A DNA stretch of 64,000 bases from Alphaproteobacteria bacterium (GCA_965243135.1 OZ251539.1:2816001-2880000), one strand, 5' to 3'. Counted from the stretch's first letter, positions 485 to 40,188 are shown. Numbers and translations: made by a program. The notes: generated by a model not told the origin, from the letters alone.

Positions 485-3400
485 ATGACAAGATCGCACC
501 GAAATTCGAGCTTCCTGGACCGCTTCAGGTTGGAAGAAAGAGTTCTCCGCCGATCGGACCGGAAGCTGGGCCGCCCCAGAATGACGGCCGGGACGGAACG
601 CGAAACCGGCTCTGGCATCGTCCTCAAGGAATGGCTCCGGGATCCGAAGGTAGCGGACGACGATTTGCGCGAAATCTGGCGACATGAAATCCGGCAGCTG
701 CATCGGCTCGCGGGTTACCCAGGCGCCCGCGAGCATATCGTACTGCTGCACGACTCCGCCGAAGACTCCAAAGCTTTCTATCAAGCTCTGAATTCCGGGC
801 AACGCGCGCCGTTGCGAACGTTCCTCGACAGCCCACATAAAGAAGGTTGGCTCCATAACCCGCGCCGGGAATCGAGCCGACTCCATTTATGGAGAAATCT
901 GCAGCGAGTAGCAAAGGGTTTGGATATCCTGCACATGCAGGGCCTTCTTCACCGTAATCTCGACGATTGGTCCGTGTTCACCGATGCAGGAGACGAACCC
1001 GACTTTCAGTTGAGCGGGTTCGAATGGTCGATCCGCCTGGCCGGAGGAAGCGACGCTCCCCGCATTGACCACGGCAGAGACGACGACACGGCGATCCATT
1101 CCTTCCTGGAGGACTGGAAGGCTTTCGGACAACTGGCGGCACTGTTGCTGAATATAGACTCCAGAGCGTTGCTCGCCCATCGACCGGGCTTGCGCAACCC
1201 TGCCGAGTTTCTTGATGCGTCGGAGCGCACTCTATTACTTCTTCTACTCCGTGCGGATCCTCTCAAGCATATAGATGGTGATCTGATCGACGACCGCATC
1301 TGCACTATCGTTTCCAACCTCGAAAGAAAGGTCACAGCTCATGGACTAAAATTGTACCTCACATGTTCATTGGGTTCAGGTCAGCGCCTATCGGAAAAGA
1401 TTCGTACCGTAAGTGAAGGCTCCATAGAAATGGGCGATACGGACCGGCAGTTGGCATTTATTCGCGAGGATCTTTCAAGCAGTCCCAACCTTATCATCGT
1501 GGCCGATAAAAACGCAGAAACAGGTCGACGCTATTTATTGGTCGGCCATGACTTGATCTATAAACTCCGGCAGTACAGACCGCGCGGAGGAAACCCGACT
1601 TGGGACGTGGCGTATTGTGACCGACACGAAGATGAACTACCGCTGCAGCCTGCGATAATCGGCGAGAAAACGTTGTCAAGCAATTCGCTAGAATTGCTGC
1701 CACTGCCCGAAGCGAAACGTCGCTTTGTCCGTCTTCAGGGAAAGGCGACGCGATGGGAACGACAGATAGAATCTCCCCCACAAAAGAGTCACCTCGATGA
1801 GCGTGCCGAACGGCGATATCGCGGGCTTGTCCTGGTTCAGCTTCTTGAATCGTTGCGGACCGCAGCCGAAATCTGGCCCATCTCCGTAATCAAACGCGCT
1901 AGAGAGGGTGAACGTACGTTGATCCACGTGAAGCCGCGTGCCGATTCCCAGATCGAAGGACTTTCCCAAGCGTTGGGCCTGGATTCCCCGGCTGCACGGT
2001 TCCGGGAGACTTTTGAATCCGAGCAGGCCGATGGGGAATACGAATGGAAACTGACCGAGGAAGGAGTGCTCGGCGAGTGGGATCGGGAGACCGCTCAATG
2101 GAGTTTCGTAGAGGTCGAAGAAAAAGAGGGCGCGGAGCCACTATATGTCTTCGAATCCGTTGGCGAGCCGCCGATCGACGACAGCCTTTTCCTGCGGAAC
2201 AGCGGCTTCGTCGGCCAAGACCTTTTGCTGAAACGACAGATCAAGGCATTGCGCGCGCTTCGGGAACACGTCGAATTGCTGGCGATGCTAACCGATCCAC
2301 GCATTGGCCTTCGCCCGACCCATGACGACCCTGCCGAAGACGAGGCCTTCGCCAATATGGACGAATCGAAACAGTGCGCGATCAAGGAGCTGTGGGGAGT
2401 ATTGCCAGCCTATTTCATTCAAGGCCCTCCCGGCGTCGGCAAGACGAGGCTCGTGCGTGAACTCGTAGCGAGACGGTTCGCGGAGGACAGCACGACGCGC
2501 ATCCTGTTGTCCGCGCAAAGCCATCAGGCAGTTGATCACCTGTCAAATGAAATCCACGACGTACTCACGCGCACGGACGGCGAGACACCTTTGAGCATCC
2601 GGTGCTTCGCAAAGAACCGTGATGGCAGGCCCGGTCCTTTCGATCTCCGTGAACAAGCGCGATCGATCATTGATCGCTTGATGAAGAGCAAATTGGCTGC
2701 AGACGCGCCGGACAACCTACTGGCCAAGCTTGAGGACCTGAGAAACACTTTCGGAAACGGGCAGGAAGAAGAGGGCGAGTTTGAGGCGGAACGGCCTGAC
2801 CGCGCCTTCGAAGCCATGCTACTGCGATCCGCAAACGTTGTTTTGGCTTCGACCAACGCCGGAGATCTGGAACGCTTGATCGAGGAGCACGCGTTGTTCG
2901 ACTGGACCATTGTCGAAGAGGCGGGAAAGGCAAGCGGCGTCGAGCTTCTGTCCCCGCTGCTGCTTTCTCACAGGCGCCTTATGATCGGCGACCACCTGCA
3001 GTTGCCGCCTTTCGAAGCGGATCAGCGAACCCGTCTCCTCAACGATCCTTCAAAGATCCGCGATGCGCTCACATTGGGTCGAAACCTTGTCGGAAGGCTG
3101 TTTCCCGCGGCCGAGATGGACGAATTGATCAGCAGTATCGAAGGGGAGAACGCACTTGCGGCGGCTTGCGGTGAAGCCGCCGATGCCCTCATGATGTTTG
3201 AAACGATGGTGAGGAAGGAATTGGACGGACGCATTTCTTCCGGGCCAAGGCTGCCAATCGCGACCCGCCTCTCCCGGCAACATCGAATGCATCCGGCGAT
3301 AGCTCGTTTGATTTCACAATCGTTTTACGACGGATCGTTGTCGACCGACCGAAGCTGCGAACGAAAATACCAAGAAGAATCCGCTCCTTTTTCAATTGCG

Positions 3401-18965: not shown

Positions 18966-21220
18966 TAACTTCAGACCTCCTGACATCGCGTAAATTCAAT
19001 TTTCCAGCAGGGGTCCCTCGAACGCCAGTTTCAGCCCGGTGCCGGGGTAGGCATGGCCTTCGCGAGTGGTCATGGCACAGAGTTCCCGAAGCGCCTTGTT
19101 GAAGCGGGGCTGCGACATGGAATGGAAGCGCACGGTGAGGCATCCGTCACCCGGGACGAGGTCGGCCGGGGTTCGAAACAGGGTTTGGAGAAAGGCGCGG
19201 CCTTCGTCCTCGCTCCGGTTCAGCAGCGGACCGAGGGGAGCGAGCATCGCGCTTTCCGCCCGGTAAGCCGCCATCCTGACGAGGTCGGTGAAGATCTTCC
19301 GCTCGGGTTCGAGTCTGACGATCTCCTCCTCGTCCATGGTTTCCTTGACAGGCACTCTTTCCGGCAGGGTTTCCAGGCGCGCCTCGCATTCCTCGATCAG
19401 GACTTCGAGTTCCTTGATGCGTTCTTCCGGGGATGCCTTGCCGCTCCTCGCGGTTCTGCCTTTCTTTTCGTCCTTCCACTGCTGTTTCCGGATGCGCCCG
19501 ATCTTCGCTTCGAGGCTTTCGATCCGCGCCTTGCATTCCTTGTACGGCGGGTTGGGGATTATCCGTTCGGGGTCGGCCGGCTCGGTCTCGTAGGTGCAAA
19601 GATGGTCGAGCGCGAACTCGTGCCGCATGTAGCGAAAGTAATTCTCCTGGTTCCAGCGGGCGAACATTCGCGAGGCGACCTCGACGGTCGGCAGGTCCCG
19701 GCGGGTCGTCACGGTCTGATGGCCGTTGTCGCACAGCCGCCGCACCTCGCGCATCTTGAACCTTTTCTCGCCGAGACCCGTCTCCCGTTCGGCCAGCCGG
19801 TAACGGACGCCGGACGCGGGGTCCTCCACCGTCGTGAAGCCTTCCTCCGGCCAAGGGGAATAATGGCCCTTCCGGTAGGTCATGACATCGACGCCTTCCG
19901 CCGCCCAGCGCCGGAACGTTTCCGGGCTCCAGCCCTCGCGATCGAAAACGACGGTCACGCGCCCCTCCTTTCGTATCCGCGGCAGGACATCCCTGTCCAG
20001 CGCCTGCAGCAGGCCGTCATTGGCCTCCATGGAAACGAAGAACCACGGCTGCGCCCGAGCGTCGTTGACCCAGGTGTCGGTCGTCGCCGGCATGCACAGG
20101 CGCCGACGCGGCACGAACGTTTCGGGAAGGCGGTGCTTGCGTCCGTGGTAGGGTCGCACATGTCCGTCGACGTACAGGAAGCCGAGTGCTTCCGGCTCGG
20201 CCTCCGCCCACCGTCGGGTAAACGCTTCGGCCAGTCGCCGCGCCAGACCGCGCCGACCGACCTCCTTCAGCTTGCGGCGCAGCGTCTTCATCTCCGGAGC
20301 CCGGTCGAGACCGAGCAGCAGGCCCAGCTCTCCCGGGGCATGGCCCTTCAGTTGTTCCGCGTTCCTGATGCGCAGCAAGGCCATGAAGGCCAGCGTCAAC
20401 AATATGCTGCGCAAGCCGAAGAACCCCTTCTCAAGCTGTCCGTAAACCTCCTCCGTAACCTCGACCAGCCCCTCGTGCAGCAGCGCCGGCAACGCCAGCA
20501 AGACACCCGCGCCGGGCACCGATTCCGCCGCCTCGAAACGCGTCGAGGCCTCGGCGAGTTCTCCCACGCTCGCAAGCACCCGTTCCTCGACCCGCTTGAC
20601 CGCGACGCCGCCTTCGCAGCGCCCGTCCGTCGCGGACCGCACCGATGGCTGCGTTCCCGGACCCTGCCGCCGGTCCGCGCGCAGGGTCCCCTGCCGCAGG
20701 GCATGGCGGATCGTCCCCTCGGTCACGCCCGCGGCCTTCGCCGCCGCAACTTGCGACCGCCCTTCGTCGAGTGCCTCCTGTGCCCGTTGCAGTGCCAGCT
20801 CCGTCAGCTTGTACCCTCCGCGCGGTCCGCGCTCTTTGGCGAAGGCCGCCACGTTGCGGGACCGGTAGGCGTCCCGGTTGCGACGGATGGTGAGGCGGGA
20901 AACGCCGAAGACGCGCGACAGCGCCGCCACCGTCGCCAGCCCGAGGTCGCCGAGCAAACCCTGCGCCAGACGCAGGCCCGCCTTGTCGTCTTCCGCGCAG
21001 CGATAAATCGGGCCGCCCGGATTGAAAAACTCAAGATGTCCATCGTCGCGGACACAGGCCAGTCTGTCGCTGATCACGGTCGCATTTTCGGGCAGGACGG
21101 CGAGGCGGGACTGGAACATGGTATTCTCCAGAAAGTGGTACATTCTAATTTACGACGCCCTGGAGAAAAGTCAAGCAAAATCTTCAAGTTCCGCATACCA
21201 TGTCAGGAGGTCTGAACTTG
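18966..21220 (-). mobile_element. Insertion sequence of about 2.25 kb carrying the 715-aa transposase
   Basis: 17-bp inverted repeats TTCAGACCTCCTGACAT (18970-18986) and ATGTCAGGAGGTCTGAA (21200-21216); inserted in IS66-A tnpC; exact ends approximate. Confidence 0.8.
18996..21143 (-). CDS. Intact large DDE transposase (HTH plus DDE domain with IS4-like RWxxENxF motif)
   Basis: LYVDGHVRPY, VFDREGWS, RWNQENYFRY; no frameshift over 715 aa. Confidence 0.85.
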   Translation of the reverse strand: MYHFLENTMFQSRLAVLPENATVISDRLACVRDDGHLEFFNPGGPIYRCAEDDKAGLRLAQGLLGDLGLATVAALSRVFGVSRLTIRRNRDAYRSRNVAAFAKERGPRGGYKLTELALQRAQEALDEGRSQVAAAKAAGVTEGTIRHALRQGTLRADRRQGPGTQPSVRSATDGRCEGGVAVKRVEERVLASVGELAEASTRFEAAESVPGAGVLLALPALLHEGLVEVTEEVYGQLEKGFFGLRSILLTLAFMALLRIRNAEQLKGHAPGELGLLLGLDRAPEMKTLRRKLKEVGRRGLARRLAEAFTRRWAEAEPEALGFLYVDGHVRPYHGRKHRLPETFVPRRRLCMPATTDTWVNDARAQPWFFVSMEANDGLLQALDRDVLPRIRKEGRVTVVFDREGWSPETFRRWAAEGVDVMTYRKGHYSPWPEEGFTTVEDPASGVRYRLAERETGLGEKRFKMREVRRLCDNGHQTVTTRRDLPTVEVASRMFARWNQENYFRYMRHEFALDHLCTYETEPADPERIIPNPPYKECKARIESLEAKIGRIRKQQWKDEKKGRTARSGKASPEERIKELEVLIEECEARLETLPERVPVKETMDEEEIVRLEPERKIFTDLVRMAAYRAESAMLAPLGPLLNRSEDEGRAFLQTLFRTPADLVPGDGCLTVRFHSMSQPRFNKALRELCAMTTREGHAYPGTGLKLAFEGPLLEN

Positions 21221-21347
21221 TGGCCGACCCACTTCCGGGCGAACGGCGCGAGGTTCGGGTAGCCGGTCTCAAGGTTGACGAAGTCGCGTCTGGCATGGGC
21301 CCAATTATGTTGAATTCAACATAACTGGGCTTATGTTGCGGATCCAG

Positions 21348-21696
21348 TTATGTTGCGGAGGAGCGCTAACGGCTTGAAAAGTAATGGAACCCGACGCATT
21401 TCCGCAACATAATATTTCGCAATCACAGTGCATCAAGAAAGGCCGTCAACCTTTTGTTCTCTTTCCACGAGCGAACCGATTCTGCGCAATGCCTGAGATA
21501 GTTCAGGCGTTCCTCAAGCAGCGGTGCGGCGCGAGGCTATGGCGCCGTGATCGACAAACAGATCCTCGAACATGGTCGTATCTCCTTGTGGTCGGAGACA
21601 TGACCACGGCAAACGAATGCGAGTCGAAATATTATGTTGCGGAAATGCGTCGGATTTTATTGTTTTTCAGTACGTTGCAACCAATCCGCAACATAA
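21348..21696 (-). mobile_element. Internally deleted RIT (recombinase-in-trio)-like mini element
   Basis: Inverted ends TTATGTTGCGGA / TCCGCAACATAA with internal inverted CCGACGCATTTCCGCAACATAATATTTCG. The minus strand has an AAGGAG RBS and MFEDLFVDHGAI...LEERLNYLRHCAES (RitA-like N-terminus) joined to WKENKRLTAFLDAL* (RitC-like C-terminus). Confidence 0.6.
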
Positions 21697-21706
21697 CTGG
21701 ATCAGT

Positions 21707-24380
21707 GTAAGCGTTCGCTACCCGGGTGATGGTCCGCAATTGAGGATCTTCTTCCAGTCCCGCCGCAGGGGCTTCAGCCAGATATCCTTGACCGGCAGCG
21801 CATACTCGTTTTTCACGTCGAGCTTGCCGCGGCCCTGCGTTTTACCGACCCGGATCCAGTTGGCCGCACAGTAGCAGGTTCCTTCGAAGCGCTGCGTTTC
21901 GCAGAAGGTCTCGAGCAGGACTGGACGCAACGCGTAGCGGCGGTCCCAGTCGTCGGGCAAACGTCGCTGGACCTGTGCGAGGATATGGGATGCAAGGTGT
22001 CTGATTCTGACCCAGGGCAGTATGAGGAATCTTGCGTTGTTGACGACGAAGGGCAGATTGCGCCGACGACATTCGGCATCCCAACCGCTGTCCCGTGGCG
22101 CAATCTTCCACGCGGCGGCGCCGAAGCCGAGCACGGCCAGCGGTTCGCCCTCCGCGGAGCGGACGAAGTACCGAATCTGTGCGCCGGGCATGGGCGTGAA
22201 GCCGAGGTAATGATAGCGGTCGATGAAGGCGTTCCAGAGACGGCCCTCGCTGGCGTTGCGGATAGGTTCGCAAAGGACGGACCTGATCGAGACGTTCGGG
22301 GGGTGGGAACGGGGGCGGCTCGGTTTCGGGAGACGGCGGAGCGGCGAACGCGGGCGGACCGGAGCTGCGACGGCGGCAGAACGACGAGGCCGTCGCGTTC
22401 CATCCGCAGCAGGGCGACGCGAGCGCTCATATCTTTCAAGCCGCCGTTGGGCTTGCGCCAGTCGAGGCGTTCGCACAGGATGCGCGACAGGGGCGTGCGT
22501 TTGAGAGGCGGATCCCGTTGCGCGGTCGCGGCTGAGGTCGGCTTCCGAGAATTTCCGCCCGCAATACCGGTAGCTCACGGTCCTTGCGGAAGCTGGTTGC
22601 GCCAGGCGCGGACGCGGCCCGGGTCCGCACCCCAGGGAAGCCAGGCATGCGCCTCTTCGGGCGCTCGTCCGCCACGTTCGGCGCAGGCTTGCAGATAATC
22701 GCGGAGCCAGTGGCGCGGCGAGAGGCCGGCCAGTTCGAGCGTACCGAACACGGAGAAGAGCAGCCCGGCCAGTTGCGCGCCCGCCTCGCTGAACGAGCCG
22801 AACGAGAGCTTGCGCCCAACGGCCGCGCCGCGCAGGGCGCGCTCGGCAAGATTGTTGTCCATCGGCACGGCTGTCGACGAAGACCTCCAAGCCTTGACGC
22901 AACAAGGACTGCAACGGCTTGCGCTGCGGCGCGTCCTCCGGCAGGTCGTCGAGTTGCCGCCTCGCGTCGTCGAAGAATGTGTTGCTCTCAAGCTCCCGTT
23001 GCGCCTCGTCAAAGGCGGCGGTTTGTTCGCTCGCTCCGGGGAGCCAGTGCCGCGACCGCTCGGCATTGCAACCATACAGAGCCGCGATCTTAACTACCCA
23101 CTCATCGCCGAAAGACTTCATGTCGGGGCGCCCGACTCCGATGTCCATGAAGTCGCGGCGCACATGCGCCCAGCAGTAAACGAGCACGAACTGGTCCGGC
23201 AGATCCTTCGCCAGCTTCTTGTAAGCGGAGTACCGGTCGCGATATACCGGCTCGTCGACACCGAGGCCTCCGAACAACTTCTGCGCCGCCGCTGCGCTGC
23301 GGGAAGGGTCGATGATCATCCTCACGGCGTCCGGGGTCTGGCAAACCCAAAGCCAACTGCGGGGATTGTCGCCTTCCTCGCCGCGGACGTGAACCCTCCA
23401 GCTCGTCTCGTCGCCGTGAGCTAGCCGCTGCCTGATGTTCAGCAATAGCATCGCCGAGCGGCGCGAACAAGGGAACGAAGCGCTTGACGCTGTCCCCCAG
23501 CGTGCCCGGCGCGACCTCGAAGTCGAACATCGACAGCTGTCGCGGTACAGATCGCAACGGACGGTGCAGGGCGTAAGTCTCGGTCAGAAACCAGTTCCAG
23601 ACGCTCAGGCCGTACGGCGTGTTCGCGAACAGCCGCGGGGCCGGCGGCACCTCCTGCTTCGGCGCGCACGAGCATGTCGAGCGGTACCGGGGCCGGCGGC
23701 AACGCCGCTTGTAGGCGCGAACCTCGACCTCGACGAACTCGGTGACCTTTTCTCCGTTTCTCGCGTAAGGCTTGCCGCAGTTCGGGCAGCGGCATTCCTC
23801 AGGTTCAATGACCTCTACCTCTACCGGCAAATCCTCGCGCGGCGTGCGTCCGTGCGACGACGACCCGGGCTGTCGCCCCCGACGCCGCCGGGCCTCTCGT
23901 TCCGCGCCGTCCTTCCGCGAACGTCGGGTGCGCTCGCTCTTGCGACCGAACTTGTCCTGAACAAGCTTGCGGTTGCGCGCCGCGGGCGTTCTCGCGTTCG
24001 CTCTCGTCGAGTCGCTTCCCCAACTTCGCAAGATCGTGCCGAAGGCGGCCCGTTTCCCGCTCAAGCTCGTTCATCGAGGAGGCCGACTTCAGGCGCTTCA
24101 GCTCGTTGCGCAACGCCTCCGCCCCGCGCCCGACCGTGCTGCGCCTTCCAGAACGTCGCCTGCTGACGAGCGCTTACCTCCTTCCAGCGCGACGCTTCCG
24201 CTTCCTGGCGCGCCTCGTCCCGCTGCCCGAGGGTTATTGCCAGCAGCAAGGCCCACTGTCGGTCGGTCGCTTCAAAGCAAAAATCTGGTGTCGCCAACTC
24301 CATGAAGGCGCAGGGGTCAGCGAATCGTTTCCAGTCCCCGGGGCAAATTTTTTTTCGTCCCCCGGGTAGCGAACGCTTAC
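21707..24380 (-). mobile_element. IS66-family element B: frameshifted tnpC plus DUF4338 gene
   Basis: Perfect 20-bp TIR GTAAGCGTTCGCTACCCGGG; CPNCG, HGDETSW, DRYSAY, CWAHVRRDF, DNNLAERALR; DUF4338 at 21718-22578; ACTGGATC at 21696-21703 and 24381-24388 (imperfect TSD, 3 extra bases on the left). Confidence 0.9.
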
Positions 24381-25815
24381 ACTGGATCCGCAACATAAGC
24401 CCAGCAATATGAAAGGACGATGCCCCCGTCCATGTCGCGCGCCAGTTTCCGGTAAGCGGAGTAACGGTCGCAGACCAGGTAAGCCGCCTGCTCGGGCGAG
24501 CCGAGGCCCCCGAACAGTTCGCGGGCGGCTTCCGCGCTGCGCGACGGCGATGGTGCGCGTCGCGTCTTGGGACCGGGCGATCCAGGCGCGGGCGCTGCCG
24601 CCGTCTTTCTCGCCCAGTTCCCGTCCACCCCGTTTCGTCGCCGTTGACGACCGGAGCTTCCCACAGACGCCGGGAGATCTCTTCGTCGAGTTGCCAGCGG
24701 CAGCAGGCGTCGCTGCGCGTCCGCCAGTGTGCCGGGCGCGAGCCCGTGCTGGCGCAACGCGCGGCAGACCGAACGCAGCGGACGGTGCTGCCCGAACCTT
24801 TCCGCCAGGACGAACGCCCAGACGGACACTCCGTATCGGGTGAAACACCCGCTCCGGGGCCGGACCGACGACCTCCTTTTCCTGCCCGCAGGCGCAGGCC
24901 GGGCGCAGGACGTCGAACATGCCGAACGCGATCCTGTACTCGAGGGTGTACGTCTCGTTGTAGCCGTTCGAGACCCAGGCCTTGCCGCAGTTCTTGCACT
25001 TGCAATCGTCCGGGACCGAATCCTCCTCGCGGACAGGCAGGTCCGGAAACGGCGTGCGGCCGTGCGACGGCGTTCCCGAACGTCGCCCCCGGCCCGGAGG
25101 CTGTGGGCGGCCGCTCGCTGCTGCGCCCGTACAGATCCCGAGCGAGCCTGCGGTTGCGGGCTTTCACGTTCTCTACGCCGCTCTCCGCAGCTTCCGGCTT
25201 CGCCAGCGACGCTCCGCATCTCTTGGCCAGCGCCCGGTCGCGCTCTTCAATCTCCCGGGCGAGAACCGCGTTCTCCGAGGGCCGCGTTCTCCCGGTCGCG
25301 CCCTGCAATCTCCCGGAGGAGCGCCGCGTTCTCCTGGACGAGAGCCGCGTTCTCCCGGAGCAACGACGCAAGTGGAGTCTGACCGTCGCTCGACAGCTCG
25401 GTTCCGAGGAGTGCGCCTGCAGATTCGAACGCCATGGCGTACAAGAACTACAATCCGGTTTCCAGCTAAAAATTTTGTCCGGCTGGACAGGCCGCTCCGC
25501 CCGCGAGACGCCGCGCCAAAGCCTGTTGCCGGGCTACCTGCCAGGCGTGGCGCGCCGCCGCCGTACCCGGCAGGCCGAACCCGGGACCGAAGACGGCTCC
25601 TCAAAAAAATAGATCGTCACTTGACGAGCGAACGCTTACGAAATCTGAAGCCATCAAAAAGGACAATAAAAGCGACATCAATTACCGTGAATGCTCATAC
25701 TTCATGGCATACTGACCTTAGCGCGGGTATTGTTGGCACCCAACAAGTCAGCGCTTATGGGAGGCCGTACCCACCAGAAGAAAGCGTCTTTCCACGGCGC
25801 ATTGAGCTACGCCAG

Positions 25816-34360: not shown

Positions 34361-37270
34361 CTATGCATTATCAACTGAGCCGTTAAAAAGCGCAACCATT
34401 TTATACAATCGATTTTCGCTTTCTTTAATCATTTCAGAATATACTGCATTGTTGAATCCCCACAAAACAGAATCGTATTTTTCGTTTTGTCTAACAAGAA
34501 ACGGCAGGGTTACAACGACCTTGAGATTTGGCAAATTCTCGATAAATCTATCAATAGTGTTTTCTGAGTTCAAATTGTCAAAATCCCACGAAACAATACG
34601 TTGAAACAATCTTTCATTATATATACAGAATACAGTCGATGTCATTTTATCTATAGTAACGAACGTCGTTCCATCGAAAACTTCGACAGACAGAATTTTA
34701 GTATTTGAATTTAGGTCAGATATAAGTCCGCAAAATAAATCCCATGAACCTTCTTTTTGATCAAGAAATTTGTGTACCGATTTGATCTTTGTCGGAAAAT
34801 CCTTTCCAAACACTACGTCATCTTCCGCAACCTGAATTCGCTTCATTCCGCTAATCTGTGCATAGCGCGCAATTACATAATGACTCATACCACAACCGAT
34901 CCAGCTAGGCTGTCGGCGTATACCATCAAATACGGTCCATTCATTAAATAAAAATTCCCCAATCATGTCATTCCGCCGCATGAACGTTTCTGGCATAGAA
35001 ATGAGAATCTTGTCACCTGACAGTACGGGAGGACATATTTCTCTAATATATGAACTCGGAAGAATACCAATAGCGATCAAAAACCTGTCGAACATGAATG
35101 AAAATCTTTCGTTAGACGCTTTTACGGAAAGTGACATTTTTTGTTTCGACGGGGGGTTTTTCAGTGCATCTTCCACAGCATACAGCATAGAAGCGACAGA
35201 TCCTTGTCCAAAGAATGTCACTACGCCCTCAAGCTCTGGATAATCTTTCTGATCACTTGAGGATTCCGAAACGACTGGGGTTCCTAGCGAAAGGCACTGC
35301 CAAATTCGCGGAACTTCTAGAAGCCCATTTTCATAGTGATGCAGATTAATGACAACTCGTGCAGATTGAATTATTTCTTCCAAGGGAGAGCCAAATACGT
35401 CATTGACTATCAAAACGTTATATTTCTTCTTCAGTTCTGACAGCAAGCGTTGTCGTCTAGGGGAACTGAGGTTATCTCCATAAAACAGGATCTCACATGT
35501 TTTTCTGGCCTCATTCTTCGCACCCTCGTAAGAAGGTAGACCACAAATGGGGAGATAGTGGACGTGTGGGAAAGCTATCTTCATTTCATTAAGAAAGGGA
35601 AAGTTATGAGTTGCATATTCGAGAACAGAAAAAGAGTTATTCAATATATATAAATATTTTTCGTCAAACCAGCGAGAAGAAACTGTCTGTTCCACTTGAA
35701 ACGATATGAGTTTATCAAAAGGTGGAAGCTTTTCAAAAAATTGAGGACATATCACAATGTAATAGGCTAGAGAAAAATCATCGGGAGGACTCGTCGTCGT
35801 ATGGACGTTCCAACCATGCGCCTGTAATCGGCGTTCGATAGCTTTTGCTATGAATAAAGTATGAGGCGTTGCCATAATGCCCCAAGAAATCGGATATTTT
35901 TTTCTCTCGTATAATCCGGTAATTTGTTTCTCCACCTTCCAAGCGTTGTATCTGCCAGAGTGCTTTAGAAACGGCAATGGTGTTCGTTCAAAAATTAGAT
36001 TCCTTACTCGAATTTTAGTTGCTGAAGAGAGCGGTATTTGGCGCCATACCACGCGGACAGTTCTAGCTATTGTTCTACGCACGCCCCAACCCAGCGCAAC
36101 CGACAATCGTCGTAGACCCCGAAGCGGGGCAGTCACACGCCAACTCTTGGATATGTATATACTTTCGATCTCGCCGTCGCGCTTCGCCAGCGCATCCCCC
36201 AACGTTCCGATCCGGGCGTTCAGTTCCGCGATCTCGCCGTCGCGCTTCGCCAGCGCATCCCCCAACGTTCCGATCCGGGCGTTCAGTTCCGCGATCTCGC
36301 CGTCGCGCTTCGCCAGCGCATCCCCCAACGTTCCGATCCGGGCGTTCAGTTCCGCGATCTCGCCGTCGCGCTTCGCCAGCGCATCCCCCAACGTTCCGAT
36401 CCGGGCGTTCAGTTCCGCGATCTTGATGTCTGGTTTTATGGCGTCGAAGTTGGATTTTATTCGACGGAGCTTATCTAAATCTCCGCTGTTCATATCACCA
36501 TATGACCAACGGTTAAATATCTCGAAACTTGATACGAGCAGAGGCGAGAGGGTTGGATCTGTTTCTAACTCCGTGCAATCGGTGTGATGATGGCGTAATT
36601 CCAACGACAAAAAATCTTCAACCTCGGTTTGGATATTTGCTGACATATGCTTCGGCCATGTAACCCCCAAGGCATTTTCGAGTCTATTCATAACCTCATA
36701 CGGCCGTGAAAGAACTTCGTCGTAGCTCAACCAAGCTCGCCGAAAGTCCCGTGTTTTCTCGTCAACATCAAGAAAATGTCTTAGCCACAAATTATGCGCG
36801 ATCCATGGTTCGATTCCATCACGGATATAAAGGGATGCAGCGACATCCAGAGGATTGCGTATTGGTGAGACGATGAGGGGGGTGGCACCAAAGGTCGACA
36901 AGACCTCGATCCAGAACGGCAGTAGACGGCATATTCGAGGATCTTTCAGGGCAAATAGAGAACTGTCTCCGAAATCTTCGTCAAGCGCAATTAGCGCTCG
37001 TTCCATAAATTTGTTTTCCAGCTGATAATCGTGCCAACATGAATCCAAATTTGCCCAGTCATCCCAAGAAGAGTGCATAGATGCGAGAATTTCTTCGTTT
37101 AGATTAACCACTCTTAGTGGTTCCCAATATCCACTAATGTTGCTCCAATTAGCTGGCACTAGCAATTTTGGAAGATCGCAGCCAAACAGTCCTAGAAGGC
37201 GCGTGATTGCCGATGTACCGCTTCGGTGCATGCCGGCGACGAGAATGACAGTTTTGTTCTTTTCGCGCAT
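34361..37270 (-). CDS. Sulfotransferase-like domain, coiled coil, SKSWRVTAPLR motif, glycosyltransferase domain(s) and a GT25-like C-terminus
   Basis: VAGMHRSGTS, LKDPRICRLLPFW, RNPLDVAASL; INLHHY..LLEVPRI..LSLGTPVVSE; GCGMSH, VAEDDV; AT-rich. Confidence 0.8.
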   Translation of the reverse strand: MREKNKTVILVAGMHRSGTSAITRLLGLFGCDLPKLLVPANWSNISGYWEPLRVVNLNEEILASMHSSWDDWANLDSCWHDYQLENKFMERALIALDEDFGDSSLFALKDPRICRLLPFWIEVLSTFGATPLIVSPIRNPLDVAASLYIRDGIEPWIAHNLWLRHFLDVDEKTRDFRRAWLSYDEVLSRPYEVMNRLENALGVTWPKHMSANIQTEVEDFLSLELRHHHTDCTELETDPTLSPLLVSSFEIFNRWSYGDMNSGDLDKLRRIKSNFDAIKPDIKIAELNARIGTLGDALAKRDGEIAELNARIGTLGDALAKRDGEIAELNARIGTLGDALAKRDGEIAELNARIGTLGDALAKRDGEIESIYISKSWRVTAPLRGLRRLSVALGWGVRRTIARTVRVVWRQIPLSSATKIRVRNLIFERTPLPFLKHSGRYNAWKVEKQITGLYERKKYPISWGIMATPHTLFIAKAIERRLQAHGWNVHTTTSPPDDFSLAYYIVICPQFFEKLPPFDKLISFQVEQTVSSRWFDEKYLYILNNSFSVLEYATHNFPFLNEMKIAFPHVHYLPICGLPSYEGAKNEARKTCEILFYGDNLSSPRRQRLLSELKKKYNVLIVNDVFGSPLEEIIQSARVVINLHHYENGLLEVPRIWQCLSLGTPVVSESSSDQKDYPELEGVVTFFGQGSVASMLYAVEDALKNPPSKQKMSLSVKASNERFSFMFDRFLIAIGILPSSYIREICPPVLSGDKILISMPETFMRRNDMIGEFLFNEWTVFDGIRRQPSWIGCGMSHYVIARYAQISGMKRIQVAEDDVVFGKDFPTKIKSVHKFLDQKEGSWDLFCGLISDLNSNTKILSVEVFDGTTFVTIDKMTSTVFCIYNERLFQRIVSWDFDNLNSENTIDRFIENLPNLKVVVTLPFLVRQNEKYDSVLWGFNNAVYSEMIKESENRLYKMVALFNGSVDNA
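36167..36418 (-). repeat. Perfect tandem repeat, 4 x 63 bp (IAELNARIGTLGDALAKRDGE)
   Basis: Read directly; in frame; visibly more GC-rich than the host gene. Confidence 0.97.
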
Positions 37271-37989
37271 TTCCAAACTCCGGCACTCTGTGCAGCATGT
37301 AACCGGGAACTTGTTGAGTGGGCGCAATCCCCGTATATTCCCCGTGTGGTCAAAGTCCACCAAATTGTTTTTATTGTCAAGTGTGAGATGTCGGGCGTTT
37401 GTGGTGTGCCATTTTTTGTCGGCTTGGCACCCGGCTGGCACCCTACGGATCGCCTTGATCGCCCTTCGGCACGCAGGGTCGCACGGACGACTGGTTCCGA
37501 TCCCTGTCCCCGTCGGGGCGAAGCGGAACCATGACGCCATCGAGCGAGACGGTGCACGAAGCCGCTTCCTCCTGCACCGTTTCCACCTCGGACGTCCCTA
37601 GCCGTCCTTTCCTTCTCGTTCCAGCGCTCGCCGCCCTCGTCGACAGACGCGCAACTGGACGGGCCTCCCGGCTCCGTTCGTCGGCGTGCGGTGGCGCAGG
37701 AGCATCGCTGCGAGCCGCCGGTTTCTACAGCCTCGGGCTTTCGGCGTCCACGCCAAGGTAAGCGTTCGCTGCCCGGGGGACGAAAAAAATTTGCCCCGGG
37801 GACAGGAAACGATTCGCTGACCCCTGTATATCGCCTTTATGGAGTTGGCGACACCAGATTACGCACCTTCGGTGCTTTTTTGATTCCAACCCTTTGATAT
37901 AGCGCGTTCTTTTCTCGCGAACCGATAGATCGGGAAGGCAGAGGATTCCTCCTGCTTCCCCGGTTGCAACAGCTTCGGGGGAAAGAATC

Positions 37990-39090
37990 ATGGTCCGTCT
38001 CAACCAGCGCAGGGTCGACGCCCTCAAGCCGCGCAAGTCCGCTTACGACGTTCGCGACGACGATCTCAAAGGGTTCGGCGTCCGGGTGCTGCCGTCCGGC
38101 GGAAAACGATACTTCGTCCACAGCCAGCACGAAGGACGGCGCGTCTGGAAGGTCGTCGGTAAAGACATCGCCGAGGAGGAGGCCCGCGCGCGGGCGAAGG
38201 CCGCCCTGGCGGCGATCCGAAACCGGACGTCGGCGATCGTGCCGGAACAGACCCTGTTCGAGGCGGTTGCCGAGGAGACGTTCGAGCGTTACGGGCGGAA
38301 CTGGAAACCGCAGACGTTCGAGGTCAACCGCGGGTACTACAGGAACCATATCCTGCCGTGGTTCGGGGGACGCCAGATCGCCGAGATCGCGCGGCGGGAC
38401 GTCCGGCGCTGGTTCGCTTCGTTGCGCGATACGCCGGCGGCGGCGGATCGCTCGGCGCCGGTCCTGTCGGTGATCATGCGGCAGGCGGAGGTCTACGGCT
38501 ACCGGACGGAAGGCAGCAATCCGTGCACGGGCATCCGGCGCTATCGGCGGCAGGGGCGCGAGCGGTTCCTGACGGCGGCGGAACTCCGCCGCCTCGGAGC
38601 GGTCCTGGCGAGCCGCGAACCCGACTGGCGGGTCGCGGCGGTGCGGCTTCTGCTGCTGACCGGTTGCCGCAAGAGCGAGATCCTGACCCTGCGATGGATC
38701 GGCTACCGCGAAGGCAATCTGTTCCTGGAGGACAGCAAGACGGGGCCGCGAACGGTCTGGCTGTCGTCGGCCGCCCGGCAGGTTCTGGACGGGCTGGAGC
38801 GACGAAGCAGGTGGATCTTTCCATCTCCAGCGAAGGACGGCGCCCTGAGCGCGGAAGCGATCGGGCGTTTCTGGCGGAAAGCGAGGGCGGAAGCCGGACT
38901 GCAGGACGTCCGGCTGCACGATCTGCGCCATACCTACGCCAGCGTGGCGCTTCGGCACGGCGAGACCGTGCTGACCATCGGCCGGTTGCTCGGCCACAAC
39001 GATCCGGGGACGACCCTCAAGTATGCGCATCTTGCCGACGCGGCGGTCCACGAAGCGGTCGAGGCGGTTGGCGCGGTCTTGGAGGGATGA
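37990..39090 (+). CDS. Tyrosine recombinase/integrase with arm-binding domain (copy 1)
   Basis: GFGVRVLPSGGK, TGCRKSE, KTG, HDLRHTY, LLGH, Y. Confidence 0.93.
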   Translation: MVRLNQRRVDALKPRKSAYDVRDDDLKGFGVRVLPSGGKRYFVHSQHEGRRVWKVVGKDIAEEEARARAKAALAAIRNRTSAIVPEQTLFEAVAEETFERYGRNWKPQTFEVNRGYYRNHILPWFGGRQIAEIARRDVRRWFASLRDTPAAADRSAPVLSVIMRQAEVYGYRTEGSNPCTGIRRYRRQGRERFLTAAELRRLGAVLASREPDWRVAAVRLLLLTGCRKSEILTLRWIGYREGNLFLEDSKTGPRTVWLSSAARQVLDGLERRSRWIFPSPAKDGALSAEAIGRFWRKARAEAGLQDVRLHDLRHTYASVALRHGETVLTIGRLLGHNDPGTTLKYAHLADAAVHEAVEAVGAVLEG

Positions 39091-39093
39091 GAC

Positions 39094-40188
39094 ATGCGGA
39101 CTCGTCTGACCGACGCCAAGATCGCCGCGCTGCGGCCGCGCGAACGGGAGTACACGGTCTGGGACGAGCGGATCTCCGGGCTCGGGGTTCGCGTGCGTCC
39201 GTCCGGGCATCGCAGCTACGTTTTTCTCCGCAACGGTCGCAGGGCATCGCTCGGCCCGGCAGCGCTCAAGGCGGTCGACGAGGCGCGCCGCGAATGCCTC
39301 GAGGGCGTCGCGCCTGCGGAAACGGCACCGTCGTTCGGGGATTTCGTCGCGAACCAGTGGAAAACCGCCTGCTGCATGCATTTCAAGCCGTCGACGCAAC
39401 GGACGGTGAACTCCATTCTGAACAGCCAGTTGCTGCCGACCTTCGGTTCCACGCCGCTCGACCGGATCACCGCGGCGGAAGTCGGCCGCTGGTTCGACCG
39501 GTACAGCCGGACGGCGCCCGGCGGAGCCAACGGGACGCTGGACATATTACTGCAGATAATGAACCATGCGATCATGCGCGGTCACATCGAAAGGAATCCG
39601 GCGCAAGGCATCAAGCGGAACAGGCGTCCAAGGATCACCCGCTTCCTGTCGCGAGAGGAACTCCGTCGTCTCCATGCGGAACTGGACGTTTGCGGGCGCG
39701 GGACGCGCAAGCAGCAGGCGGACATCATCCGTCTTCTGCTGGCGACCGGCTGCCGGAAGAACGAAATCGTGAAGCTGCAATGGCGCGAAGTGGACGAAAC
39801 CGCGCTCAATCTCGCGGACAGCAAGACGGGACCGCGAAAGGTCTTTCTGAACGCGCAGGCCCGCGCCATCGTCGAGCGCCAGATCCGGACCGGGAGCCCA
39901 TACGTCTTTCCGTCGGCATCGGACCCGCGGCTCCCGCAATCGGACAAGCTTCCGCTCTGGCACGAGGCGAGGAAGCGGGCGGGGATCGAAGATGTCCGCC
40001 TGCACGATCTGCGGCATACCTTCGCCAGCCACGCCGTCATGCAGGGGGTTCCGCTGCCGGTCGTGGCGCGGCTGCTCGGTCATCGGGACGTGCAGATGAC
40101 TTTGCGCTACGCGCATGTCGCCGACAGGGATGTCGAGGCGGCGGCGGAACGGATAGGAAGCACAATCTCAGGTCTTCTGGACGGTTAG
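39094..40188 (+). CDS. Tyrosine recombinase/integrase with arm-binding domain (copy 2)
   Basis: VWDERISGLGVRVRPSG, TGCRKNE, KTG, HDLRHTF, LLGH, RYAH; starts 3 bp after copy 1. Confidence 0.93.
   Translation: MRTRLTDAKIAALRPREREYTVWDERISGLGVRVRPSGHRSYVFLRNGRRASLGPAALKAVDEARRECLEGVAPAETAPSFGDFVANQWKTACCMHFKPSTQRTVNSILNSQLLPTFGSTPLDRITAAEVGRWFDRYSRTAPGGANGTLDILLQIMNHAIMRGHIERNPAQGIKRNRRPRITRFLSREELRRLHAELDVCGRGTRKQQADIIRLLLATGCRKNEIVKLQWREVDETALNLADSKTGPRKVFLNAQARAIVERQIRTGSPYVFPSASDPRLPQSDKLPLWHEARKRAGIEDVRLHDLRHTFASHAVMQGVPLPVVARLLGHRDVQMTLRYAHVADRDVEAAAERIGSTISGLLDG

Follow-up and report, generated by a model that had tools for sequence, protein, structure and literature searches.

How does a transposable element come to carry, just inside one of its ends, the mirror image of the six base pairs into which it is inserted? 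The question is raised by a small element in a 64,000-nucleotide stretch of an alphaproteobacterial genome (Alphaproteobacteria bacterium, GCA_965243135.1 OZ251539.1:2816001-2880000; this whole stretch is called the window, and positions are counted from its first letter), where a broken and decayed IS66 transposase gene (IS66-A) is interrupted at its Cys-Trp|Ala-His codons. Judged by its remnants and ends, this element is an internally deleted, non-autonomous derivative of a recombinase-in-trio (RIT) element and not a complete RIT. Its ends are probably best explained by Xer-like recombination at a 6-bp overlap, proceeding via a junction that contains two mirror-image core sites.

The mini-RIT occupies window positions 21305-24398 and measures 409 bp once a later insertion, IS66-B, is subtracted. 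On the minus strand, the interrupted gene reads ...GIVLSYCW to the right of the element and WAHARRDFVNLE... to its left, both being IS66 transposase sequence. The features of the locus are the following, with the strand where one applies.

21219-21298, minus strand: remnant of the IS66-A transposase gene (tnpC) on the 3' side of the insertion point, translated as WAHARRDFVNLETGY...; homology to other IS66 copies starts near 21219
21299-21304: palindrome-side flank hexamer GCCCAA; intact copies of the IS66-A type have ACCCAA or ACCCAG here
21305-21324: perfect 20-bp terminal palindrome TTATGTTGAATTCAACATAA, formed by two back-to-back arm-like half-sites, TTATGTTGAAT and ATTCAACATAA
21325-21330: inner hexamer CTGGGC, reverse-complementary to the flank GCCCAG at the far side
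21331-21359, plus strand: left inverted repeat, consisting of the next three features
21331-21341: arm1 TTATGTTGCGG
21342-21347: fixed (second) spacer ATCCAG
21348-21359: arm2 TTATGTTGCGGA
21360-21400: 41-nt loop A
21401-21412: inward-facing arm3 TCCGCAACATAA
21423-21479, minus strand: 3' remnant of ritC, ending ...SVRSWKENKRLTAFLDAL and then stop
21480-21573, minus strand: 5' remnant of ritA, with start codon at 21571-21573, MFEDLFVDHGAIASRRTAA and then stop; a 1-nt frame change leads to LLEERLNYLRHCAE
21632-21643: right-hand arm3' TTATGTTGCGGA
21644-21684: loop B of the right end
21685-21696: arm2' TCCGCAACATAA of the right end
21697-21702: fixed spacer CTGGAT of the right end
21696-21703 and 24381-24388: 8-bp target duplication of IS66-B, ACTGGATC, read from the sequence
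21704-24380, minus strand: IS66-B, a later insertion in the right inverted repeat of the mini-RIT, with 27-nt terminal inverted repeats and a Pfam DDE_Tnp_IS66 domain
24388-24398, minus strand: arm1' CCGCAACATAA, the outermost arm of the right end
24399-24404: flank hexamer GCCCAG on the non-palindrome side
24405-25219, minus strand: IS66-A transposase gene on the 5' side of the insertion point (...GIVLSYCW; Pfam DDE_Tnp_IS66)

An earlier, sequence-only reading of this locus had described nested palindromes with inverted hexamers; its strings and positions were all found as described and lie far beyond chance, and the inward-facing arm3 and arm3' and the target duplication of IS66-B are additions to its list. 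The arm TTATGTTGCGG occurs seven times in the window when up to one mismatch is allowed, against 0.74 occurrences expected, and the 8-nt arm core TTATGTTG nine times against 0.67; none of 100 shuffled sequences reached at least seven copies of the former, nor did any reach the count of the latter. At each end, a 12-bp stem closes a loop of 41 nt, all of it within an inverted repeat of 79 nt (81%), and segments 21325-21348 and 24381-24404 are 100% complementary. The terminal inverted repeat, which comprises hexamer, arm, spacer and arm, is about 35 bp long, as seen in two uninterrupted copies elsewhere in the genome (copies 2 and 3, the window element being copy 1). Since IS66-B has its own terminal repeats and is bordered by an 8-bp duplication, it is an IS66 insertion of the ordinary kind that entered the right end of the mini-RIT at a later time. 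Its long open reading frame (21718-23451, minus strand) combines a match to DDE_Tnp_IS66 (residues 7-187) with a strong one to the Druantia DruA family PF14236 (residues 397-548, E 7e-38); it may be a genuine fusion, a captured fragment or the product of reading through a broken gene.

The identity of the element follows from its 219-nt core, which holds two minus-strand remnants. The ritA remnant is preceded by a ribosome-binding site, and one frame over from its start codon the sequence reads LLEERLNYLRHCAESVRSWKENKRLTAFLDAL, followed by a stop. Residues 1-15 of the window peptide are 73% identical to residues 20-34 of RitA of locus L055 (E 7e-6), and residues 17-32 are 69% identical to residues 322-337, the last 16, of RitC of locus L051 (E 8e-6), so that the core corresponds to approximately codons 1-34 of ritA fused to approximately the last 16 codons of ritC; a complete trio is missing. 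L055 and L051 have the same ends as the window element and carry three overlapping tyrosine recombinase genes between two hairpins (in L055 at 147-1367, 1364-2317 and 2292-3305, encoding 406, 317 and 337 amino acids), and the two end hairpins stand about 3.3 kb apart in several loci of our scan. The proteins of both loci match the trio of Cupriavidus necator plasmid pHG1 one to one (RitA E 4e-23, RitB 5e-40, RitC 4e-64), with the RitC match including the C-terminal tail. Remnants of RitA and RitC together with trio-bearing relatives that have the same ends therefore point to a RIT whose interior was deleted, and the identification as a mini-RIT in the sequence-only reading is borne out. Other genomes harbour mini forms of 468, 489 and 538 bp with other deletion end-points, in which differing amounts of ritC are kept; mini-RIT derivatives therefore appear to have arisen more than once.

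Neither NCBIfam nor Pfam holds a dedicated Rit model. The best NCBIfam matches of the trio proteins are the XerC/XerD models, with 89-164 bits and thus below the cut-offs of 330-335, and the Xer/dif-like geometry of 11, 6 and 11 bp noticed previously is real. Two trio loci deserve separate mention. On plasmid p4 of Sagittula sp. MA-2 (L059, 2100-5760), a RIT trio encodes a RitC with 67% identity to its counterpart in L051. This trio has no ATGTTGCG arms, and part of a toprim-domain gene lies on either side of it in inverted copies; it may represent a lineage with different ends or an inversion product. On pHG1 (L060, 18345-27678), one RIT is inserted in the ritC of another and is followed by an inverted second copy of ritA-ritB, an arrangement remarked upon in 2010 as a "maze" of recombinase genes.

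Are the ends of the window element a local accident? We scanned genomes, one per species, for the end motif of arm, 38-44 nt and inverted arm, which yielded 39 matches; seven of these (L041, L042, L044, L046, L049, L052 and L053) showed, on our reading, no other RIT feature and were left out. From 44 further matches in metagenomes, ends were parsed in 27 rows and the rest were unused. Together with the three local copies, this resulted in 29 non-redundant palindrome ends, and the motif is present in Alpha- and Gammaproteobacteria, Gemmatimonadota, Binatia, Acidimicrobiia and metagenome-assembled genomes of Acidobacteriota. All 29 palindrome ends follow the same plan, which reads outwards as inner arm, fixed 6 bp, outer arm, inner hexamer, 20-bp palindrome, flank hexamer and host DNA. 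The palindrome, symmetrical at 14-20 of its 20 positions, occurs at one end only, the other end stopping after the outer arm and the flank hexamer, and its half-sites co-vary with the arms of each lineage. Wherever ends were parsed, each has exactly two arm-spacer units. Read by eye, a RIT on a Mesorhizobium plasmid shows the same plan (flanks ACGGTA, inner hexamer TACCGT), with an IS91-type element sitting between inner hexamer and palindrome. The RIT of pHG1 has different arms (TTATGCCG-type) in the same arrangement of arm, 6 bp, arm, about 44 nt and inverted arm, and one of its ends reads AGCCGGCATAA, CGCGGT, a perfect 20-bp palindrome, ACCGCG and then IS66. A plan shared by many RITs, including that of pHG1, indicates that the ends in the window are the standard RIT end. 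The palindrome is consequently a standing part of the RIT ends examined, and not, as the sequence-only reading had supposed, a local product of repeated events.

In this genome of 6.1 Mb, the arm 11-mer occurs 19 times, accounted for by three elements and two single copies. The three mini-RIT copies, at 1.97, 2.84 and 5.92 Mb, all lie within IS66 genes, at homologous Cys-Trp|Ala-His codons of diverged transposase genes and with the palindrome on the His side. Across the collected ends, 16 of 29 adjoin the His side of an IS66 Cys-Trp|x-His site according to our reading of the flanks, and the window element and the unrelated L028 both end at position 153 of the 284 positions of the DDE_Tnp_IS66 profile. 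A second IS66 site, Pro-Leu-Tyr-Arg, hosts L030, L061, L078, L098, the Mesorhizobium plasmid RIT and the RIT ends of a genome of the same genus as ours (G009). Further targets are the IS66 tnpB gene (L057) and, by Pfam, a TrwC relaxase gene in three Binatia copies, a Tn5-like transposase gene and a B12-binding gene; the target of L019 resembled an IS110-type transposase by eye and had no Pfam match. Insertion of ritA1B1C1 in an IS66 transposase gene has also been on record since 2010 for C. metallidurans CH34 (PMC2864759).

The central observation concerns the hexamers. In 16 of the 29 ends, the adjacent flank is mirrored without mismatch by the inner hexamer, as its reverse complement; in five ends the two agree at five of six positions, and in eight at four or fewer. 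With one representative per flank (20 classes), 99 of 120 positions agree, which was reached in none of 10000 permutations. As the inner hexamer mirrors the flanks across 20 target classes, it is tied to the crossover site. Where inner hexamer and flanks disagree, the former tends to be identical to a different natural variant of the target: in L078, the inner TATCGC and the flank TACCGT are synonymous Tyr-Arg codons; L037 has CTGGGC inside and TTGGAG at both flanks; and the inner hexamer of L048 likewise differs from its flanks. That the inner hexamer can retain the crossover sequence of a former insertion is plausible.

No such link is seen for the second spacer. Within a lineage it does not vary with the target (ATCCAG, CCCGGA, ATCGGA, ACCGGA or AGAGGA) and is alike across lineages that have unrelated targets. 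ATCCAG/CTGGAT is a lineage-fixed part of the inverted repeat, is unrelated to any target and records nothing. The sequence-only reading had taken all spacers to be records of earlier targets, and this plausibly holds for the inner hexamer, which co-varies with the target over the 20 classes and in L037, L048 and L078 equals a different natural target variant, as expected of such a record, but not for the second spacer. In its full form, with each 6-bp spacer an inverted copy of a crossover and the stacked arm-spacer units a ledger of former targets, the proposal is improbable. The tracking of targets by the inner hexamer across lineages, and its occasional identity to another natural target variant, are what such a ledger would predict. 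However, the number of arm-spacer units is exactly two per end and never any other, the counterparts of the second spacer follow lineage and not target, and in this genome both CTGGGC and ATCCAG (CTGGAT at the other end) are invariant in all three copies despite differing flanks, an outcome that the sequence-only reading had itself named as its refutation. In window orientation, these flanks are GCCCAA/GCCCAG in copy 1, ACCCAG/ACCCAA in copy 2 and GTCCAA/GTCCAA in copy 3.

Differing flanks are common. Both flanks are known for 21 elements; they are identical in 11 and different in ten, and all three hexamers agree in nine. Within this genome, imported flank hexamers could not be told from drift, which is expected to cause one or two changes in 12 nt, and this comparison was dropped in favour of L028 and L045, two elements of a single genome. 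Once one of them is flipped, their bodies are identical at 430 of 430 positions, the asymmetric palindrome being flipped too, and still the two differ in the far flank, CTGGGC against TTGGGC. Because the bodies are identical and the far flanks differ, flank mismatch is not simply a matter of mutation or decay. In L028, L048 and L078, a foreign hexamer may have been carried along.

These elements share with miniature inverted-repeat transposable elements (MITEs) of DDE transposons that they are non-autonomous, ends-only deletion derivatives present in several copies and presumably moved in trans. One might accordingly regard the window element as an ordinary DDE-transposon MITE with a 6-bp target-site duplication, and its palindrome as an unrelated tiny insertion; this would fit a small element that has inverted repeats at its termini, exists in several copies and belongs to a group in which 11 of 21 members have identical 6-bp flanks. 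We consider this extremely unlikely: the interior consists of ritA and ritC remnants, the parents encode tyrosine recombinases only, flanks differ in ten of 21 elements including a pair with identical bodies, and the palindrome, always at one end, has half-sites that co-vary with the arms of the lineage. The earlier conclusion that this is not an ordinary target duplication stands on the ten elements with unequal flanks, among them the copy whose 430-nt body is identical to that of its sister. In RIT elements, the flanking repeat would be the crossover core and not a repaired staggered cut.

How, then, could such ends be generated? In the model that we favour, the RIT recombinases, acting in trans in the case of a mini element, would excise the element by joining its two ends. 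The junction would read arm, hexamer, palindrome, hexamer, arm and would thus present two mirror-image Xer-like core sites back to back, each composed of an arm, 6 bp and one half of the palindrome. Either core site could recombine with a target of similar central 6 bp by staggered strand exchange across the 6-bp overlap; the site used would be split into the two flank hexamers, and the unused site would remain intact beside the palindrome. The model would explain the inverted inner hexamer by the presence of two mirror-image core sites in the junction, and the same two-site arrangement would keep the palindrome to one side of an asymmetric target hexamer in every case. It would also cover the joint flipping of body and palindrome, the occurrence of bodies in both orientations and an inner hexamer that can retain the crossover sequence of a former insertion; flank hexamers may differ because one would come from the target and the other from the element. 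Flipped copies are indeed found. Flipping one of the pair L037 and L029, palindrome included, brings them into agreement at 496 of 500 positions; body and palindrome are flipped together among the three Binatia copies; and in this genome, the entire body of copy 2 is inverted with respect to palindrome and target when compared with copy 3, each of the two loops being identical at 41 of 41 positions. We also counted as a sign of inner-site activity the deletions at genome position 460527 and in L057, in IS66 tnpB, whose end-points coincide with the inner hexamer.

The same element and sites could also be used in another way, in that the element might move as a folded single strand or as a molecule with hairpin ends. 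Folding of the palindrome would let arm, hexamer and palindrome half pair with their mirror image to form one duplex core site, comparable to attP of CTX phage or attC of integrons, with exchange of a single strand followed by replication. The layout of RIT ends resembles the folded attP of CTX phage. As single-stranded DNA, the palindrome with its hexamers is predicted to fold at -10.1 kcal/mol (z -6.1), and the left stem-loop of arm, loop A and arm at -12.9 kcal/mol (z -3.2), with z -3.05 for the other arm-loop-arm; an entire hairpin at one end and the last arm at the other is, moreover, the layout that such an integration would be expected to leave. In a mobilome study, RIT DNA was protected from exonuclease, the circle could not be closed and hairpin intermediates were proposed (PMC5737581). 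Any inverted repeat folds as a single strand, however, and the folding figures do not discriminate between the two forms; nor is there a strand bias in the sequences, and bodies occur in both orientations. We therefore regard a folded mobile form as unlikely, and retain the two-site junction as the preferred reading.

Several points weigh against the two-site junction. A junction, tandem or circular form reading arm-hexamer-palindrome-hexamer-arm was seen in none of the 105 records examined. Four public sequencing runs gave contigs only, and the joints in these (one that "skips 3100", opposite-strand joints at 21393/21650, 21417/21626 and 21326/23173, and one of 21695-24381) match what intact IS66 paralogues and mini-RIT copies 2 and 3 would yield; since paralogous copies account for them, they were rejected as evidence of present excision or inversion. 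The literature searched, which did not cover the main descriptive paper, contained no experiment on RIT movement. Owing to the divergence of the IS66 genes in this genome, hexamer mismatches here are inseparable from ordinary mutation. In eight of the 29 ends, inner hexamer and flank match at no more than four of six positions, and in L055 and L068 at only three; classical tyrosine recombinases are not known to tolerate two or three mismatches in a 6-bp overlap. Finally, what distinguishes copy 1 from copy 2 is an inversion restricted to the core, which the model does not predict and which needs an exchange between the inner arms, and L048 and L050, found in one genome, both have the opposite phase of body to palindrome, so that a second kind of flip is needed.

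A wider reading is speculative, and as a whole we consider it doubtful. RITs may move via the junction, possibly as a folded single strand, with the terminal palindrome uniting two mirror-image core sites. If the two sites alternate in use, the inner hexamer may be a heritable copy of the crossover at the previous site, and the pair of spacers may set the next target. The three recombinases may correspond to three classes of half-sites, namely tandem arms, palindrome halves and target arms. RitA, reported to have two DNA-binding core domains (PMC8138268), could read two direct arms 17 bp apart with these domains. A 2012 paper was unable to explain the need for three recombinases (PMC3414803).

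What moved the copies in this particular genome? A RIT trio is absent from its 24 PF00589 (tyrosine recombinase) matches, and tblastn searches of the genome with RitA, RitB and RitC found at best about 26-32% identity. The sequence-only reading had called for a three-recombinase parent; L055 and L051 are relatives that carry trios between the same ends, and this genome holds no full-length parent of the lineage. A search for the family matched two of 26 genomes, this one included, the other being that of G009 with related but truncated RIT ends, and a 28-mer of the left end had no match in the metagenome contigs. The three mini-RIT copies are 87-88% alike, copies 2 and 3 are without the IS66-B insertion, and the IS66 copies that bear mini-RITs are 82-93% identical to the nearest intact IS66 copies of the genome. 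In the absence of a trio from the genome, the copies are orphans of some age; they are old, immobile relics.

Mobilization by the XerC/XerD recombinases of the host, with the mini element as a hitchhiker on a dif-like site in the manner of integrative mobile elements exploiting Xer (IMEX), might seem a way around the missing trio. RIT sites share with Xer/dif, IMEX and CTX phage the 11-6-11 core, the inner CATAA/TTATG and recombinases that score best against XerC/XerD. The genome does encode Xer-like genes, and the inner CATAA / TTATG and the 6-bp spacer recur in its candidate chromosomal dif, TTGTCGCATAA-TGCATA-TTATGGATTAT, at 1,650,262 (C1:1650250-1650290), at the peak of the cumulative GC skew at 1.64 Mb. 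Yet no copy is located at dif, all being in IS66 genes, and a position-by-position reading gave agreement with the dif arms at only about five to seven of the 11 positions of an arm. Full-length relatives encode three recombinases themselves, whose scores remain below the XerC/XerD cut-offs, and the age of the copies fits the loss of a mobilizing trio. Host Xer mobilization is thus very unlikely. A tandem integrase pair in the window (37990-40188) was also considered as mobilizer and rejected, as it belongs to another, arm-binding type of integrase and is without TTATGTTG ends. The 2.3-kb unit that contains it (37862-40159, plus strand; two adjacent phage-type arm-binding integrase genes at 37990-39090 and 39094-40188) is not a RIT; it adjoins an IS66 end at 37757-37860 and has three further copies in the genome with 72-79% identity, one of them 4 kb from mini-RIT copy 3.

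Two isolated pieces of RIT sequence were found elsewhere in the genome. A solo 20-bp palindrome at C1:460527-460546 (L013/L014) is bordered by the perfectly mirrored hexamers ACCCAG and CTGGGT, with an IS66 transposase gene on one side and unrelated DNA on the other; this suggests a rearrangement with its end-point precisely at the inner hexamer, and L057 is a comparable case. At C1:671856-671873, a stretch of 18 nt composed of an outer arm, the fixed spacer and a single additional base stands isolated from any other RIT sequence. We considered this relic as the reciprocal product of the rearrangement at the solo palindrome and rejected the idea, as the hexamers do not fit. Other repeats noted in passing are two TTATGTT motifs 15 bp apart within a 13-nt inverted repeat (ATACATTATGCCG / CGGCATAATGTAT) at C1:5338500-5338560, for which no relation to the RIT arms was seen as far as compared; a highly repeated sequence ending ...GCTTTCGTTGGTTATGTTTCCCCCTGAAGAACCTGCTA at about 25 genome sites (e.g. 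C1:631288, 1969248 and 2261750), which is probably the end of an abundant insertion sequence; and 63-bp tandem repeats in the window at 36166-36423, which give BLAST self-matches offset by 63 and 126 bases.

RIT elements were named between 2009 and 2013. The window element resembles the archetypes of C. metallidurans CH34 and C. necator pHG1 in its ritA and ritC remnants, the homology of its relatives' trios and the plan of its ends, and differs from them in being without all three recombinases and only 409 bp long. Tn916 is similar in that its flank hexamers, the coupling sequences, may be non-identical and travel along, which implies strand exchange across a mismatched overlap; in contrast to RITs, it uses one integrase together with Xis, has low target specificity and is not known to possess a terminal palindrome or a mirrored internal hexamer. 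Tn554, SE and GInt likewise encode several tyrosine recombinases, are site-specific and, on moving to a new site, bring along 6 bp from the old one (PMC10214605). They are reported to be without target duplication and to leave a one-sided 6-bp footprint, whereas in the RITs analyzed here a hexamer is found at both flanks, with a third, inverted one beside a palindrome. RIT proteins fall into RitA, RitB and RitC groups and not into the TnpA/IntA groups (PMC8138268). RITs were tabled in 2023 with inverted repeats of 34 bp, compared to about 35 bp in the window element, and with target specificity and movement given as "not tested" (PMC10214605). In the literature searched, which leaves key RIT papers outside, we found no mini-RIT, no palindrome with mirrored hexamer, no mention of the exact IS66 codons and no hexamer exchange; the mini form and the anatomy of the site were thus not found described, though some of this may already be in print.

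RIT elements are widespread and poorly understood, and the legible ends of the window copy expose the layout of their recombination site. This provides handles for the study of RITs: a defined core site and a predicted palindromic junction, targets that consist of conserved codons of IS66 transposase and relaxase genes, and natural non-autonomous substrates of 400-540 bp as possible reporters. It also portrays a family of transposons that has mostly settled within other mobile elements, a location that entails little cost to the host and offers free rides. In the genome studied here, the mini-RIT is a fossil in a stack of nested insertions, and its value lies in the site anatomy that it exposes.

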